Below, in pieces: positions 19,737 to 35,693 of a stretch of DNA of 64,000 nt (positions are counted from its first letter, which is position 1; every line of letters starts with the position of its first letter). The notes beneath the pieces were generated by a model. That model made no database searches. It worked only from the letters and a program-made list of their open reading frames with translations, and had not been told where the DNA came from. A program made the position numbers and the translations under genes. This stretch comes from Thermoproteota archaeon (GTDB taxonomy: Archaea > Korarchaeota > Korarchaeia > Korarchaeales > Korarchaeaceae): contig JAOZFG010000004.1 in the NCBI GenBank assembly GCA_027491435.1, positions 160,001 to 224,000 on the forward strand. Reading direction: 5' to 3'.

Positions 19737-21062
19737 ATGGATAGTTTCATCTGTTATGTAGTTCCTCTATTTTCTCCTTCAATCATTTTATTTACAGGCC
19801 TACTAATATCTGGGAGATTGGAAGAAGCCCCTCTGACGGGTCTCCTAATATACGTTCCTTTTCTCCTATTTATCAGACAGCCTTTTAATGCTTATGTGGG
19901 TCTACTATTCCTTCCCATAGCGGCTTATGCTCTCCTTAAAAATAGATCTAGATATAAACTAGAATTAGATTACTTACAAATAATTTCTATAATTCTCCTT
20001 ATATATCTAATGCTTTTTAAGCCAATAGTGGCGTCTTGGACTAACCCAGACGACCGCATTCACTATCATGAGATTAAATCTTTTTATAAGGATCCGATAT
20101 CTATGACGTTATATCTCAGATACACTCCTCTATTCTACATATTCGGGGCCGTGATCAGGTCGTTAACTCCCTCACCTCTATGGATGATATCGCTAAGGTT
20201 ACTCTTAGTGATAATAATTTTTATAAATTTTGGGCTATTACGCGATTTATCCTTAAAGACGGGAGCCGATTGGAGGATAACTTCGGCATCTTACCTAGTT
20301 ATAGGGGCTCCCTTTATAGCCTTATTTTCGACGGGCACGTATCCCAACGTGATGATGGACTACCTAGTCCTCCTATCCTTTAAGAAGCTCTTGGAGGGTG
20401 AGAAAAGGTCAGCCTACTTGATTGCCCTTCTCCTACCTGCCCTTCACATAACTTCCCTACTTTACTTGTACTTCCTCCTGATGACCTCGATCAATTCCAG
20501 CGAGAGCAGGATGGCTAAGTACTTGATACCGCCAACCGTCACATCTCTAGCGTTCTTGGTTCTGTACCTGAAGATGCCTGACTACATCAGCCTGTACTTG
20601 GCTAACGGCTTTAGCCCAGAGAACTTATTACATTTTCCCGTGATGTACATACATAGCTTAAAGGCAATAGGGATTGTCGCTTTACTGTCTATCTTATCAA
20701 GAGATCTTAGGAAAAACCCTATAATTATTCTAATGGTTCTGAACATGGCTGTCGCCTACCTGTTCTCGCTCTCCATGCTCGGGGTAGCCTGGCGGATCCT
20801 GCAGGCCTACTCATACCTTTACGGGTGGTCCTTCTCTCTTCTTAAAAATAAGTTGGGAATAAAGTCATATGTGGCAACCGTAGTAATAGCTCTCTCGATA
20901 AGTTCTATATTTTTTGCATCAATGGACGCGTATCAGTATAAATTTATTGACATAATCTGCTCTCACAACTGTATGGCTATGGTCTACGAAAGGCTGTACC
21001 ATAACTTCATTGAGGTGGTGGGATGTGCTGGAGAGCTTATCTCCGGGGTCCCTGGTAGGTAG
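19737..21062 (+). CDS. Polytopic membrane protein, probable GT-C fold glycosyltransferase
   Basis: About 12 TM segments; loop motif PDDRIHY...YTPLFY; AT-richer than flanks. Confidence 0.55.
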   Translation: MDSFICYVVPLFSPSIILFTGLLISGRLEEAPLTGLLIYVPFLLFIRQPFNAYVGLLFLPIAAYALLKNRSRYKLELDYLQIISIILLIYLMLFKPIVASWTNPDDRIHYHEIKSFYKDPISMTLYLRYTPLFYIFGAVIRSLTPSPLWMISLRLLLVIIIFINFGLLRDLSLKTGADWRITSASYLVIGAPFIALFSTGTYPNVMMDYLVLLSFKKLLEGEKRSAYLIALLLPALHITSLLYLYFLLMTSINSSESRMAKYLIPPTVTSLAFLVLYLKMPDYISLYLANGFSPENLLHFPVMYIHSLKAIGIVALLSILSRDLRKNPIIILMVLNMAVAYLFSLSMLGVAWRILQAYSYLYGWSFSLLKNKLGIKSYVATVVIALSISSIFFASMDAYQYKFIDIICSHNCMAMVYERLYHNFIEVVGCAGELISGVPGR

Positions 21063-22218
21063 ATTCCCACATTTTAGAGGCTAACCCTCCAGTATATTTC
21101 ACTTTGTCCACTACTTTTTCGGCGTCTTTCCTCTTCCTTTTGTGCTCATCCAAGAATTTAATGACCTTCTCTGTCAAGTACGCCTTACATTCCCCACAGA
21201 GTATCTCTCCCCTCTTACAGGCCCAGTACCTCTCCTCTAACTTCTTATCGTCGGGCTCGAAGAATATCTCCAACCACTTGAATACCACGCATTTCTCAGG
21301 CTCTCCTCCCTTCTCCCTCTGCTCTTTGGCTGTAGCCCTTCCCCCTGTGAAGGCGAATTTCCATATCTTCCTTTTCACATCTTCTGGGCTATCCGTCAAG
21401 TATATAGCTGTTTCAGGCTTGCTAGCACTCATCTTCCCGGATATTCCCGTGAGAGGGGGGAAGAACTTAGAGTGTATAGCGGCAGTCTTGTAGTAGCCTA
21501 GGCTCTCGGCGTAATCCCTTTGAATCCTCCAGTAGGGATCCTGATCTATTGCCGCAGGTATCAAGCACCTCCTCCTTTCGAAGAAAGTAGGGGCCGCCTG
21601 AATCGCTGGAAAGAATATCATCCCTATCTTGCTCTGTTCGTTGAACCCGAAGACAGCTCTAGCCGTGGAAAAAGTGACCTTCTTAGCTATGGGAAGGGCC
21701 ATCTCATATATTTTAGTGAATTCGCTGTCCTGGAAGATGAACGTCTTGTCCGGGTTAAAGCCTACGGCGACTATGTCCAGGATGTTGTCAAGGGCCCACT
21801 TCCTAGTATCCTCTAAAGTGAGCTCCGGCTTAAAGAAGAATTTCTCATCGTCAGTTATCTGTATGTAAAGGTTGACGTCGAATTTCTCTTGAAGCCACTT
21901 AGTCATGTAAAACGGTATTATGTGTCCAATGTGCATCGGGCCAGATGGTCCCCTCCCAGTGTACAGGAAGAATCCCCTTCCCTCTTCGTAGTCTTTCAAC
22001 ACCAGATCGTAATCCCTATGGGAGAAGAAGAACTTCCTCCTGAGAAATATGGGTAACTCCGACTTGGTAAGCTCCTGCGTCTTTTTAAGTAGGTCATCGG
22101 TTAAGGGTTGAGTTCCAAACCTCTCTATTAGCTTCCTGTAGTCGACTACGCCTTCCACTTCCCAAGGAGTTACAATGAAATCTTCCAGTGAGGTCACCCC
22201 CTCACCAAAATACGTCAC
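21037..22218 (-). CDS. trpS: Tryptophanyl-tRNA synthetase (main frame; probably entered by +1 frameshift from ATG 22228)
   Basis: VTPWEV, LYTGRGPSGPMHIGH, PAAIDQDPY, KMSAS. Confidence 0.97.
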   Translation of the reverse strand: MTYFGEGVTSLEDFIVTPWEVEGVVDYRKLIERFGTQPLTDDLLKKTQELTKSELPIFLRRKFFFSHRDYDLVLKDYEEGRGFFLYTGRGPSGPMHIGHIIPFYMTKWLQEKFDVNLYIQITDDEKFFFKPELTLEDTRKWALDNILDIVAVGFNPDKTFIFQDSEFTKIYEMALPIAKKVTFSTARAVFGFNEQSKIGMIFFPAIQAAPTFFERRRCLIPAAIDQDPYWRIQRDYAESLGYYKTAAIHSKFFPPLTGISGKMSASKPETAIYLTDSPEDVKRKIWKFAFTGGRATAKEQREKGGEPEKCVVFKWLEIFFEPDDKKLEERYWACKRGEILCGECKAYLTEKVIKFLDEHKRKRKDAEKVVDKVKYTGGLASKMWESTYQGPRR

Positions 22219-22228
22219 CCGAGGGCAT
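22202..22228 (-). promoter_or_regulatory. trpS leader ORF MPSGDVFW* with candidate +1 frameshift site TTT-TGG-TGA and internal SD GGGTGA
   Basis: ATG CCC TCG GGT GAC GTA TTT TGG TGA; the +1 frame continues TTT GGT GAG GGG GTG ACC TCA CTG GAA into TrpRS. Confidence 0.75.
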
Positions 22229-22259
22229 ATGCCTGCTCCCCGGGGACTACAAAATAAAG

Positions 22260-22859
22260 TTAATTGGACCCTAACTCCTCGGAGAGAACTTCGCTGACTT
22301 CCTCATAAACCTTGCTGGCTGAAAGCTTTATGCTCTTATCCAAAAGCTCTCCGCTTATTCCGGCAGTTTTCTCTATACTCAAGGCCACTGCCATTGAATA
22401 GGCCTCTGAGATTATACCAACACTCCAGAGGACTCCTTTCTCTAATGACAATATCAAATCAGGCTTTCCCCTTTCAACTAGAATATTTGTGATTTTTATT
22501 AGAATAACCCCTATAAGTGCTAAGAACTGTCTCATAGAGACCCCAAACTTACAATGAGCTAGCCCTACTTTGGAGATTTTAAGAGCATGCCTGTAACCAA
22601 AGCCCTCAGAGAAGAGATTCCTAATACACAATTCAAGCAAATTTTCAGCCGCCTCTCTAGTAAGCCCAACGGCCTTCACTATTTCAAAGGATTCTTTGTC
22701 AGCCAATAAGATATCTACGGCCTCTTTTACAACTTCCTTTAAGCCATCATCACCAAGAACTTTATACACTTCCCTAATATTCTTTATATCCTCTTCAGAA
22801 ATTCTCAGAAACTCTCTTAAATTGGAATGTATCTCTTCAAGTCTGCTTATGAACTCCAA
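22260..22859 (-). CDS. Protoglobin / sensor-globin-like single-domain protein
   Basis: FLRISEEDI N-terminus and KVGLAHCKFGV proximal-His segment; AT-rich. Confidence 0.65.
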   Translation of the reverse strand: MEFISRLEEIHSNLREFLRISEEDIKNIREVYKVLGDDGLKEVVKEAVDILLADKESFEIVKAVGLTREAAENLLELCIRNLFSEGFGYRHALKISKVGLAHCKFGVSMRQFLALIGVILIKITNILVERGKPDLILSLEKGVLWSVGIISEAYSMAVALSIEKTAGISGELLDKSIKLSASKVYEEVSEVLSEELGSN

Positions 22860-33747: not shown

Positions 33748-34215
33748 ATGAGGAAGCCCAGACCTCCAGGAAACTTCTCCTTCGTAGACGAGTGGGTCGC
33801 CGGGTCGGCCATGCTGCACGAGCCCGAAAACGTAGACTGGATCTTCTCCAAATCGATAAAGGCGATCATATCTCTGGATCCAATGATACCAGATGAGGTC
33901 GTGGAAAGGATCAAGGAGCTTGGGATAAAGCATTACCTGAAACCAATAGTAAATTTCTCGGCGCCCACATTGGAGCAGCTAGAGGACATAGTCGACACCA
34001 TAGTGGAGCACGTGAAAAAGGGGAAGAAGGTGCTGGTTCATTGCTGGGCCGGTTGTGGCAGGACAGGCACGGTCTTGGCTGCCTACCTAGTGTGGAAGGG
34101 TATGGACGCTGACGTAGCGGTTGCTAAGCTCAGGAGCCTAAGACCTTGTTCCATAGAGACTCAGAGCCAACTGGATGTGGTCTGGTATTACTGGAGGGTT
34201 AGGAAGGCTACCTGA
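33748..34215 (+). CDS. Dual-specificity/PTP-family phosphatase
   Basis: VHCWAGCGRTG (HCX5R); LRPCSIETQSQ. Confidence 0.92.
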   Translation: MRKPRPPGNFSFVDEWVAGSAMLHEPENVDWIFSKSIKAIISLDPMIPDEVVERIKELGIKHYLKPIVNFSAPTLEQLEDIVDTIVEHVKKGKKVLVHCWAGCGRTGTVLAAYLVWKGMDADVAVAKLRSLRPCSIETQSQLDVVWYYWRVRKAT

Positions 34216-35629
34216 TTATCCTCCACTTGGTTCCCTGGGGGGTATCCTGAAGCTCTATGCCCAGGTCCCTTAACCTTCCTCTTATCTCATCCGATAATTC
34301 GTACATTCTCCTCTGCCTTAGCTGGGACCTCACTTCCAACAGAAGCTGTACTAGGGACTTCAGCATCACCGAATCGACGGCCCTCTCAACCCTTATCCCG
34401 AGAACGCTAAGCATTTCGTTGAAGGTTGAAAGGAGGATCCCCTTACCCTGCTCGCTTATCTCCCCTACCTCAGAGACGTAAGCGTTTGTCAACCTGATTA
34501 GCTCGTACAGGTTGGCCAGAGCTTCAGGAGTGTTAAAGTTATCCGCTAGGGACCTAAAGAACCTGTCCCTCAGATCCTTAACCTTATTTAACAGCTCAAC
34601 CTCTGCATTCCCCACTTCGGAGTTGACCTCCAAGTCATAGAGGTTGTCGTAAGCGGTCTTTATCCTCTGATAACTGCTCCTGGCCTGATCGAGGAGTTCC
34701 CACCTGAAGTCCATGGGAGATCTGTAGAAGCTGGAGATCAGGAGGAGCCTCACGGGCTCCGGGCCATATTCCTGGACCACGTCCCTTATCCTTATTATGT
34801 TGCCCAAGGACTTGGACATCTTCTCTCCCTTGATGGTCAGGAGCCCTATGTGAATCCAGTACTTCACGAAGGGCTTAACTCCAGTGTAACTCTCGGCTTG
34901 CGCTATCTCGGCCTCGTGATGTGGGAAGGCAAGCTCTATAGCGCCCCCATGTATGTCGTATTGCTTCCCGAAGTGCTTTATGGTTATGGCCGTGTCCTCT
35001 ATGTGCCACCCCGGCCTCCCATAGCCCCAGGGAGACTCCCAGCCGAACTCGTCCTTTGGTCTCTTCCTCCAGAGGGCGAAGTCGCCGGGGTTCCTCTTGG
35101 TGGGATCCGGCTCTATCCTGTGAACCCTCAGCTCCTCTATCTTCTGCTTGGACAGCTTGCCGTAGTCTGGAAACGTTGTTATATCGAAGTAAACCCCAGT
35201 CTCAGTCTCGTAAGCGTGTCCCTTCTCCAGCAGAACCCTTATCTGGTCCCATATCTCCGGCAGGTAGTCTGAAGCCCTGGCGTACAGGTTCACGCTGGTG
35301 ACGTTAAGAGACTCCATGTCCTCGTAGTAAAAGCTCTCGTACTTCCTGGCCAGCTTCAGCGGGTGCATCCCCTCCTCCTTGGCCCTGTTAATTATCTTAT
35401 CGTCTACATCCGTGATGTTCACCAAGTAGAAGAGCGAGTACCCTGCCCACCTTAGGTACCTGGCCACCGTGTCGAAGAACGTGAATACCCTTCCATGGCC
35501 TATGTGGGAATAGTCGTAGACAGTGGGGCCGCACACGAACATGAAGACCCTCTTACCGTAGAGGGGAACGAACTTCTCAACACGGCCCGTGAGGGTGTTG
35601 TAAACTCTCAGGTCAGCAAAGGCCGTCAC
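34208..35629 (-). CDS. cysS: Cysteinyl-tRNA synthetase (main frame; probably entered by +1 frameshift from ATG 35633)
   Basis: CGPTVYDYSHIGH, DFALW, GRPGWHIE, FPHHE, KMSKS. Confidence 0.97.
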   Translation of the reverse strand: MTAFADLRVYNTLTGRVEKFVPLYGKRVFMFVCGPTVYDYSHIGHGRVFTFFDTVARYLRWAGYSLFYLVNITDVDDKIINRAKEEGMHPLKLARKYESFYYEDMESLNVTSVNLYARASDYLPEIWDQIRVLLEKGHAYETETGVYFDITTFPDYGKLSKQKIEELRVHRIEPDPTKRNPGDFALWRKRPKDEFGWESPWGYGRPGWHIEDTAITIKHFGKQYDIHGGAIELAFPHHEAEIAQAESYTGVKPFVKYWIHIGLLTIKGEKMSKSLGNIIRIRDVVQEYGPEPVRLLLISSFYRSPMDFRWELLDQARSSYQRIKTAYDNLYDLEVNSEVGNAEVELLNKVKDLRDRFFRSLADNFNTPEALANLYELIRLTNAYVSEVGEISEQGKGILLSTFNEMLSVLGIRVERAVDSVMLKSLVQLLLEVRSQLRQRRMYELSDEIRGRLRDLGIELQDTPQGTKWRIIR

Positions 35630-35645
35630 CCATGAGGGTCACCAC
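35613..35645 (-). promoter_or_regulatory. cysS leader ORF MGDGLC* with SD GTGGTGA, internal SD GGGTGA and candidate +1 frameshift site CTT-TGC-TGA
   Basis: GTGGTGA-CCCTC-ATG GGT GAC GGC CTT TGC TGA; the +1 frame continues TTT GCT GAC CTG AGA GTT TAC AAC into CysRS. Confidence 0.75.
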
Positions 35646-35693
35646 GAAGGTCCCCCAGATCATCTTTTAAACTTAACCCAGGATCCTAACTCC

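Follow-up and report, generated by a model that had tools for sequence, protein, structure and literature searches.

Introduction

Why should the predicted message for an archaeal tryptophanyl-tRNA synthetase (TrpRS) open with a mini-frame that is out of frame with the enzyme and closes right after a single Trp codon? The question is raised by the trpS locus in a 64,000-nucleotide (nt) stretch of DNA from a Thermoproteota archaeon of the Korarchaeota (GenBank assembly GCA_027491435.1, contig JAOZFG010000004.1, positions 160,001 to 224,000), which we refer to as the window and whose coordinates are used below. It touches on a wider problem, namely the matching of aminoacyl-tRNA synthetase levels to demand in archaea. 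An earlier note on this DNA had read the mini-frame as MPSGDVFW* and proposed that tRNA-Phe slips forward by one base on TTT_T, ahead of a hungry Trp codon, to enter trpS. The frame relationship is borne out, with trpS confirmed as the +1 frame, and of the explanations that we weigh the slip fits the comparative data best. Comparison across genomes indicates that the leader is real and conserved, and it is very probably functional; we posit that a +1 frameshift at the cognate hungry codon autoregulates the synthetase by a logic like that of bacterial prfB, a reading to which we assign a probability of roughly 0.62.

Anatomy of the trpS leader

The trpS reading frame lies on the reverse strand, from the +1 codon TTT to its stop (21037..22209), and encodes a true TrpRS: it scores 723.5 bits against NF008924 (cut-off 644) and 326.9 bits against TIGR00233 (cut-off 176.75), and aligns with the solved archaeal TrpRS in the PDB entry 3jxe with an E-value of 9e-217, the 3jxe chain starting one residue before the stretch aligned with LEDFIVTPW. 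Overlapping its 5′ end on the same strand is the leader mini-frame (22202..22228; hereafter frame 0), ATG CCC TCG GGT GAC GTA TTT TGG TGA, which has homologues at 17/17 same-genus and 90/90 Thermococcales loci. It is preceded by a TATA-like box, TTTATTTT (22251..22258, reverse strand), whose first T lies 30 nt before the ATG at 22228; the earlier note had estimated about 25-30 nt. We calibrated this distance on 1359 open reading frames (ORFs) of the assembly by placing TATA-like hexamers and Shine-Dalgarno pentamers relative to the first ATG. The hexamers begin at -30, -29, -28 and -27 in 17, 37, 37 and 24 cases, a leaderless signature, with a second, lower peak at -39 to -34 that corresponds to short leaders bearing a Shine-Dalgarno sequence, and Shine-Dalgarno-like pentamers begin at -12 to -9 in 95, 124, 127 and 106 cases, respectively. 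The ATG at 22228 occupies the position of leaderless starts in this genome.

Within the mini-frame, the proposed shift site (22205..22210, reverse strand) consists of TTT (22210-22208), predicted to occupy the ribosomal P site, and TGG (22207-22205), predicted to occupy the A site, the +1 codon being the overlapping TTT at 22209-22207. The frame-0 stop TGA (22202..22204) stands right behind the Trp codon. From the shift site on, the trpS frame reads TTT (22209-07) GGT GAG GGG GTG (22197-95) ACC TCA CTG (22188-86), which is +1 relative to the leader frame. Two features are absent from the earlier note: a first, internal Shine-Dalgarno-like GGTGAC (22214..22219, reverse strand), which starts exactly 9 nt before the slip codon TTT and is complementary to the 16S rRNA tail GGAUCACCUCC of congeners, and a GTG within this word (22216..22218, reverse strand) that is in frame with trpS, forms the start of the called ORF (21037..22218) and is a rival start. 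A second Shine-Dalgarno-like word, GGTGAG (22206-22201), is followed by the in-frame GTG 22197-22195 (together 22195..22206, reverse strand), a conventional internal start that would yield MTSLEDFIVTPW... The earlier note had offered either this GTG or CTG 22188 as an additional way in; the GTG route, with its GGTGA at the usual -9, stands, and CTG 22188 needs no role.

Both tRNAs required for the slip, tRNA-Phe(GAA) and tRNA-Leu(GAG), are encoded in the genome. Neither 16S rRNA (RF01959) nor tRNA-Trp was detected in the 99%-complete assembly, the latter with ARAGORN run with and without intron search, and the anti-Shine-Dalgarno sequence was therefore taken from three congeners and one Thermococcus. 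Their 16S 3′ tails are GGAUCACCUCC(C) and GAUCACCUCCU, respectively, and GGUGAU-like and GGAGG-like words are therefore both able to pair with 16S rRNA. The 15-nt degenerate motif of the leader occurs 2 times in the genome against 1.6 expected, so that a single copy proves nothing; its conservation before trpS in more than 100 genomes does.

We envisage the following course of events. The trpS message would start at, or within a base or two of, ATG 22228, and ribosomes would begin on the mini-frame MPSGDVFW*. Once TTT is in the P site and UGG, the sole Trp codon, in the A site, the supply of charged tRNA-Trp would decide what follows. If it is plentiful, Trp would be inserted and the ribosome would stop at the next codon; if it is scarce, the ribosome would wait while the internal GGUGAC pairs with the 16S tail and keeps the register, and the peptidyl-tRNA-Phe would re-pair one base on (UUU to UUU; in relatives tRNA-Leu(GAG) from CUU to UUU). 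After such a slip the trpS frame would be decoded, giving MPSGDVF-GEGVTSLEDF..., and low TrpRS activity would lead to more TrpRS synthesis. In Thermococcales and some other lineages the shifted frame of 21-42 codons would instead end on the trpS start and act by translational coupling, and the cysS gene of the window would use the same cassette with a Cys codon as the sensor.

A twin cassette ahead of cysS

A strict scan of the genome (a GGTGRY-like word, any three bases and YTT_T, with an ATG within 12 codons upstream, a frame-0 stop within 12 codons downstream and a minimum length of 100 codons for the +1 ORF) returned exactly two sites, one ahead of trpS (UGG) and the other ahead of cysS (UGC), both in the window. 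A relaxed scan, which asked only for an ATG mini-frame and a re-pairable codon ahead of a long +1 ORF, returned 97 sites, all of which, except those of trpS and cysS, were judged noise from their N-terminal translations alone.

The cysS element, likewise on the reverse strand, begins with a TATA-like TTTAAAAG (35664..35671) located 38 nt before the leader ATG at 35633, in the second TATA peak (-39 to -34) of the genome, followed by a Shine-Dalgarno GGTGAC (35638..35643) for that ATG. The mini-frame (35613..35633) reads ATG GGT GAC GGC CTT TGC TGA (MGDGLC*) and comprises an internal GGTGAC (35630-35625), the slip codon CTT (35621-35619), the Cys codon TGC (35618-35616) and the stop (35615-35613). 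The cysS frame extends from the +1 codon TTT (FADLRVYNTLTG...) to its stop (34208..35620), within a called ORF (34208..35629) of 470 codons that we read as a putative cysteinyl-tRNA synthetase (CysRS) from its N-terminal sequence and from an orthologue search, which found cysS orthologues in 34/41 related genomes. The mini-frame is kept as ATG GGT GAY NNN CTT TGC TGA in 17/17 same-genus cysS loci, with an equally invariant GGTG 10 nt before the ATG, and the first freely varying base is the one right after the TGA. The cassette is absent from 12 more distant cysS loci, which have plain starts. The match between codon and gene, Trp for trpS and Cys for cysS, is what a decoding-based sensor, and not a mere N-terminal extension, would predict.

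Phyletic spread of the trpS cassette

Same-genus loci were collected by a protein search of 41 related genomes, after which the upstream DNA was read (L018 is cut and was excluded). The trpS mini-frame is present at the same place in 17/17 same-genus loci that include the N-terminus (e.g., MTGDLLWP*, MTSGDLLWP*, MPGDFLWL*, MQGGSLWQ* and MQGGSLWQW*), with a consensus of ATG, 0-2 codons, GGT GRY, NNN and YTT TGG, and in the four loci counted a TATA box, TTTAAAT, lies exactly 30 nt ahead of the leader ATG. Pooling the related-genome and wider contig searches gave 107 archaeal trpS loci with an N-terminus, some genomes being counted twice; 46 carry the cassette and 61 are without it. The shared pattern ahead of trpS is G-[D/G/E]-x-[L/F]-W, always with YTT TGG. 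Carriers include Thermococcus, a second Korarchaeota genus (L019, L054), Ca. Methanodesulfokora washburnensis (L087), the genus g5, one record of the genus g3 (L023) and the Caldarchaeales- or Aigarchaeota-like records L075, L077, L091, L104 and L106; among the loci without it are those of Desulfurococcales, Acidilobaceae, Bathyarchaeia, Micrarchaeota, Odinarchaeia and Wolframiiraptor.

Thermococcales have a trpS orthologue in 94/99 genomes at an E-value of at most 1e-100. Leaving out three N-terminally cut matches and G037 (already represented by L009), we examined the DNA upstream of 90 loci (84 distinct), and 90/90 carry a leader of the form M-x-G-[G/D]-[R/C/G]-F-W-x-x-*. Over the 84 distinct leaders the layout is an AAAA stretch, TTTAAAT at -45 to -39 from the slip, the ATG at -15, GGTGRT, an NGY codon and TTTTGG, with GGTGRT and TTTTGG invariant in 84/84 once one false pattern match in the Shine-Dalgarno region of L190 is set aside. 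In a transcriptome study of Thermococcus kodakarensis, the TATA box is about 23 base pairs (bp) upstream of mapped transcript starts (PMC4247193), and the predicted 5′ end in Thermococcales is therefore the A of the leader ATG. As a separate observation, TGG occurs once more immediately ahead of the frame-0 stop in 61/81 distinct Thermococcales leaders; about 26 of these have CTT in front of it again (a second CUU_UGG). A GGTGA word is also restored by TGGTGA.

A metagenome scan with the L087 protein added 80 loci, 4/80 with the cassette: L211, the identical L222 and L223 (MVDRLW*), and L224 (MGGYFWLE*). A further candidate, L265 (MQYIFWDLLSA*), was rejected as a chance match, its +1 frame stopping 13 nt past the motif. 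The locus L284 has GGCTGTCTTTGG like L104 and is probably another carrier; the start of its mini-frame would lie beyond the 90 nt inspected, and it was counted as having none.

Across these lineages the leader ATG is at the position of a leaderless start (TATA at -30) or of one led by a Shine-Dalgarno sequence in all carriers. The earlier note had named conservation of the Phe-Trp-stop string as a check; in the relatives the slip codon is always YTT and the run always TTTGG, YTT TGG being invariant in every trpS cassette while neighboring codons vary even between distant lineages, and the frame-0 stop follows 0-4 codons after TGG. A Shine-Dalgarno-like GGTGRY is placed 9 nt ahead of YTT in the window, its genus, Thermococcales and cysS.

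In a protein tree of 168 distinct TrpRS rows, 41 of them automatically flagged as carriers, the flagged rows fall in at least 7-8 places. The largest group is one clade of 30 rows that unites Thermococcales with the genus of the window, with a support of 97 in the Shimodaira-Hasegawa-like approximate likelihood-ratio test (SH-aLRT); its sister, L052, was missed by the carrier filter, and its cassette is visible in L203. The TrpRS of the window is 75-80% identical to that of Thermococcales (L009, L115-L202), which belong to a different phylum, and the placement of both in this clade (SH-aLRT 97) points to a joint transfer of trpS and its leader between Thermococcales and the Korarchaeota-like genus of the window. 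Outside the window, the genome has a second TrpRS-like gene (contig C1:10371-11429, forward strand), 40% identical to that of the window and with 167.7 bits just under the TIGR00233 cut-off of 176.75; it has a plain GGGTGA and GTG start, without a leader cassette. The genus of the window holds both TrpRS genes and genus g5 only the cassette-bearing one.

Reading frames on either side of the proposed slip

If the slip occurs, the +1 frame ought to lead to the synthetase, and this is what is seen: in some loci it is the trpS frame, and in the others it stays open as far as the trpS start. The first arrangement is found in the window and in nine same-genus loci that we call type A, in which the leader's +1 frame is the trpS frame and stays open over spacers of 22, 28, 31 or 34 nt, all 1 mod 3, as well as in six same-genus loci that we call type B, which lack a start from the slip site up to the conserved VTPWEV and offer a single in-frame candidate, a GTG inside GGTGGT. 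The second is that of Thermococcales, in which the +1 frame is open for 21-42 codons and ends between -3 and +40 nt from the A of the trpS start in 90/90 loci (between -3 and +14 nt in 84/90), reaching it in all three phases of trpS (75, 10 and 5 loci); the +2 frame is closed within 2-14 codons and gets as far as the start in 0/90. The upstream frame ending near the downstream start is the configuration of translational coupling. The same bridging +1 frame occurs in L104, L106 and L023 (33 codons in the last), and in a second Thermococcales family (L203 and L204) it runs for 38 and 42 codons across AT-rich DNA, with a TGATG overlap in L203. The +1-frame peptides are not conserved past F-G-x-G-E; what matters seems to be translation of the bridging frame and not its encoded product. 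Shuffling of single spacers is significant only for L203 (P 0.019) and L204 (P 0.049), and the weight therefore lies on the consistency of the arrangement over diverged spacers and phases.

Some finer differences may be recorded here. Between L043 and L046, and in L124, L148, L151, L159, L166, L168, L172, L187, L194 and L197, there are single-base changes in length between the trpS Shine-Dalgarno sequence and the ATG; the difference between GTTTTGAATG and GTTTGAATG alters the phase of trpS relative to the +1 frame, which still ends at the start. The ten phase-0 loci have a TGA directly ahead of the trpS ATG.

These spacers bear on an account that dispenses with the slip, in which ribosomes terminate at TGA 22204-22202 and restart 4 nt on at GTG 22197, so that the leader delivers ribosomes from the leaderless 5′ end and its Trp codon is non-sensing or tunes their flow. 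The layout of the window would suit this, the stop lying inside the Shine-Dalgarno GGTGAG and 4 nt before the GTG, and so would L222, where TGG TGA is followed by CCGG ATG. However, the frame-0 stop of Thermococcales is 40-70 nt away from the trpS start, a gap that the +1 frame bridges in 90/90 loci, cysS and the type B trpS loci have no start after the frame-0 stop, and both the cognate codon and YTT_T are left unexplained. We consider termination and reinitiation by themselves unlikely.

Frame 0, for its part, carries marks of being decoded. In Thermococcales the position of its stop is kept while its identity switches between TGA, TAA and TAG (e.g., CTT TGG followed by TGA, TAG or TAA), switches that would be radical changes in the +1 frame. 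The codon before the slip is CGA, CGT or CGC in g5, in the L222 trpS locus and in cysS, which is Arg throughout in frame 0 and Asp, Val or Ala in +1, and the GAC/GAT variation is silent in frame 0 only. This interchange of stops and synonymous variation argue that frame 0 is translated. They also speak against the mini-frame being a by-product of an RNA or DNA signal, such as a TrpRS or CysRS binding site, a T-box-like tRNA-binding element or a promoter-proximal element. In favor of such a signal, GGTGRY...YTTTGG is invariant at the nucleotide level; but the fused leaders measure just about 25 nt, what the element holds is a codon and not an anticodon, TGG changes to TGC with the gene, and a scan of 21900-22500 on both strands against Rfam 15 at E-values up to 10 found no match, T-box included. 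The last result speaks against a T-box riboswitch, and a by-product of this kind appears highly improbable in general.

Possible initiation without a frameshift and a possible role of RNA structure

A more serious contender holds that TrpRS and CysRS, or the coupling frame of Thermococcales, start at the GTG in GGTGAY, or in the window at GTG 22197, and that the ATG mini-frame encodes a separate regulatory leader peptide, as in translational attenuation of the ermC/cat type; its translation, or stalling at its cognate codon, would alter access to the start by competition or by opening a hairpin that masks the Shine-Dalgarno sequence. Such hairpins can be drawn. In the window, an 11-bp hairpin is predicted (22183..22210, reverse strand) in which the shift site and GGUGAGG are paired with CCUCACUGGAA and GUG 22197 is in the loop, and in type A relatives the region of the shift site, CCUCCUUUG, pairs with UGAAGGAGG of the trpS Shine-Dalgarno sequence. 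By this folding model, the internal start may be masked unless the leader is translated. The 69-nt leader of the window folds with a minimum free energy of -22.8 kcal/mol at 37 °C (z -1.29, not significant), and the z of the cysS leader fold is -0.22, likewise not significant. The organisms are probably hyperthermophiles. In 82 distinct Thermococcales leaders folded singly at 75 °C, the trpS Shine-Dalgarno sequence had a mean pairing probability of 0.47; RNAalifold found essentially no consensus structure in 14 Thermococcales leaders (-1.2 kcal/mol). A transcription attenuator based on a leader peptide was also considered and set aside: the cognate codons are present, but no terminator/antiterminator pair was found, and the fused leaders, with just 4-13 codons from the slip site to the conserved N-terminus of TrpRS, have no room for one.

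Several observations do weigh against the frameshift, and the first three favor this contender. GTG 22197 has its GGTGA at -9, the register of real starts, and the frameshift is therefore not obligatory in the window; TrpRS could be made without a shift from this GTG, or in the type A loci, where trpS also has its own GAAGGAGGG and ATG. An in-frame GTG is present inside GGTGRY in every Thermococcales and same-genus leader, so that independent initiation in the +1 frame is possible there. The codon before the slip in Thermococcales is always NGY (TGC 29, CGT 22, TGT 13, CGC 11, GGT 4 and GGC 2 of 81), that is Arg, Cys or Gly in frame 0 but a conservative Val/Ile or Ala/Val in +1; ahead of the slip, the +1 frame thus seems to be under selection, which a frameshift does not predict. 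None of the models considered accounts for the constraint, which might stem from the E-site tRNA or from reading of the +1 frame. Per-locus dinucleotide shuffles of 13 Thermococcales representatives give P 0.15-0.47, not significant, and these kin are not independent. The Shine-Dalgarno-like element keeps an optimal initiation register and not the short, strained spacing of prfB. In L222 it is weak or absent, in g5 it is replaced by GGGGAT, and its stimulating role is conjecture on our part.

Other observations speak against initiation at these GTG codons. GTG 22218 is just 10 nt from the predicted 5′ end and has no Shine-Dalgarno sequence ahead, and in cysS, where the GTG inside GGTGAY is the sole in-frame start, the Shine-Dalgarno sequence is in the register that fits the ATG (-10/-11) and not the GTG (-14/-15). 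The constant YTT for Leu or Phe and the constant TTT for Phe go unexplained, and in most Thermococcales the long +1 frame itself lacks Trp codons. Stalling at UGG would, moreover, place the ribosome over the GTG and the nearby Shine-Dalgarno sequence; synthesis would then fall at low charging, opposite to the direction required.

The account further fails for L222, which has no GTG, and for L087 (identical to L206 of G047), which has no other start at all. In L087, a TGA closes the trpS frame 12 nt before the slip, and no ATG, GTG or TTG follows it until codon 31, past the conserved PWEVTGPVDYDRLIEEFG (PWEV...FG) stretch, while the leader ATG has GGTGAT three bases ahead. After a +1 shift the product would begin MGDRL-GSVSPWEV and be of normal length by comparison with 3jxe. 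This genome and two others of its genus each have a single TrpRS above the TIGR00233 cut-off. The case of a locus without another start comes from one record (L087 = L206). On balance, we see initiation without a frameshift as possible but doubtful, and retain the +1 shift as the preferred reading. Its generalization, that archaea have a portable sensor of charged tRNA (a start codon, GGUGRY, three bases, YUU and a cognate codon beginning with U) that sets synthetase output through a +1 shift, appears to us slightly better than an even bet; the shift would be the sole route in the L087 trpS, in the cysS of the genus and in type B trpS, and would deliver ribosomes to the start elsewhere, making the cassette an archaeal counterpart of the bacterial T-box and attenuation.

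Relationship to known recoding and attenuation systems

The nearest parallel is bacterial prfB, where the ribosome shifts on a P-site codon (CUU or UUU) that precedes a U, with UGA in the A site, a stop decoded through the gene's own product RF2, with a nearby Shine-Dalgarno-like element and negative feedback. The trpS and cysS leaders likewise have a short frame 0 (the stop is 1 codon after TGG in the window, 0-4 in relatives, and directly after TGC in cysS), a YTT_T that would let one tRNA pair again a base further on, a main frame in +1, a Shine-Dalgarno-like element upstream and an A-site codon whose slowness would depend on the gene's own product, with negative feedback as the proposed outcome. 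They differ in that a sense codon, UGG or UGC, stands in the A site in place of UGA, and that the product is a synthetase acting through tRNA charging and not a decoding factor. Further, the hosts are archaea, the mRNA would be leaderless or have a short leader, with the shift 6-8 codons in from its 5′ end, the Shine-Dalgarno-like element keeps the usual spacing of a start where the prfB spacing is shorter, and in Thermococcales the shifted frame only couples to the gene and does not encode it. With a sense codon in the A site and synthetases as the genes, the element is alike in logic and not a member of the prfB family.

A review of recoding gives a general treatment of prfB-type +1 programmed frameshifting and describes the yeast Ty1 CUU_AGG_C +1 shift and frameshifting upon amino-acid starvation in Escherichia coli as hungry-codon cases; neither "tryptophanyl" nor "trpS" occurs in the searched part (PMC5009743). 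Ty1 resembles the leaders in that a P-site tRNA-Leu slips from CUU with a slowly decoded sense codon in the A site, but it employs a constitutively rare tRNA and yields a fixed product ratio, whereas the slow codon of the trpS and cysS leaders is cognate to the regulated synthetase and would serve as a feedback sensor.

Leader-peptide attenuators of amino-acid and synthetase genes, such as E. coli trpL, pheM-pheST and Streptomyces trpRS1, control transcription termination by alternative hairpins and need several cognate codons. With these the leaders share a short upstream frame whose cognate codons would report the supply of charged tRNA; they differ in having one or two such codons, in the lack of a detected terminator/antiterminator pair and in the read-out, which would be the reading frame.

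In archaea, a 2021 review of recoding gives the -1 shift on A_AAA_AAT in Saccharolobus solfataricus fucA1 as the only experimentally shown cellular frameshift; it also covers viral cases and a suspected Mg-chelatase case, and contains no cellular +1 case and no mention of tryptophan (PMC8211752). As described there, fucA1 is similar in being an archaeal cellular gene that needs a change of frame for its full product, and dissimilar in the direction of the shift, in having no known sensing role and in being confined to few strains. The T. kodakarensis transcriptome study found that 11 mRNAs with functions in aminoacyl-tRNA biosynthesis have long 5′ leaders, and states that neither attenuators nor riboswitches have been demonstrated to function in vivo in archaea (PMC4247193). 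Our searches found no literature report of a leader or frameshift on archaeal trpS or cysS, and as far as they reach, an autoregulatory +1 frameshift at a sense codon of the gene's own synthetase is unpublished.

Should the proposal prove true, it would be the first cellular +1 programmed frameshift in archaea and a new feedback class, with a sense codon as the reporter of how active its own synthetase is. It would be testable in a genetically tractable model, the cassette being present in all 90 Thermococcales loci examined. It would also imply that a Shine-Dalgarno-like element is able to act inside an archaeal reading frame, and it would call for a correction of gene models, as the GTG starts assigned to trpS and cysS by annotation pipelines may be wrong.

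Neighboring and associated features

Upstream of the trpS leader, a 199-amino-acid ORF on the same strand (22260-22859) ends 2 nt before the trpS TATA box, its stop abutting the trpS promoter; it matched no NCBIfam family. At the other end of the gene, the C-terminal part of TrpRS (21037-21200, reverse strand) has four cysteines arranged as C-x27-C-x6-C-x2-C (...EKCVVFKW...ACKRGEILCGEC...), which are kept in the alignment with PDB 3jxe; some TrpRS bind an iron-sulfur cluster through a four-cysteine motif of this type.

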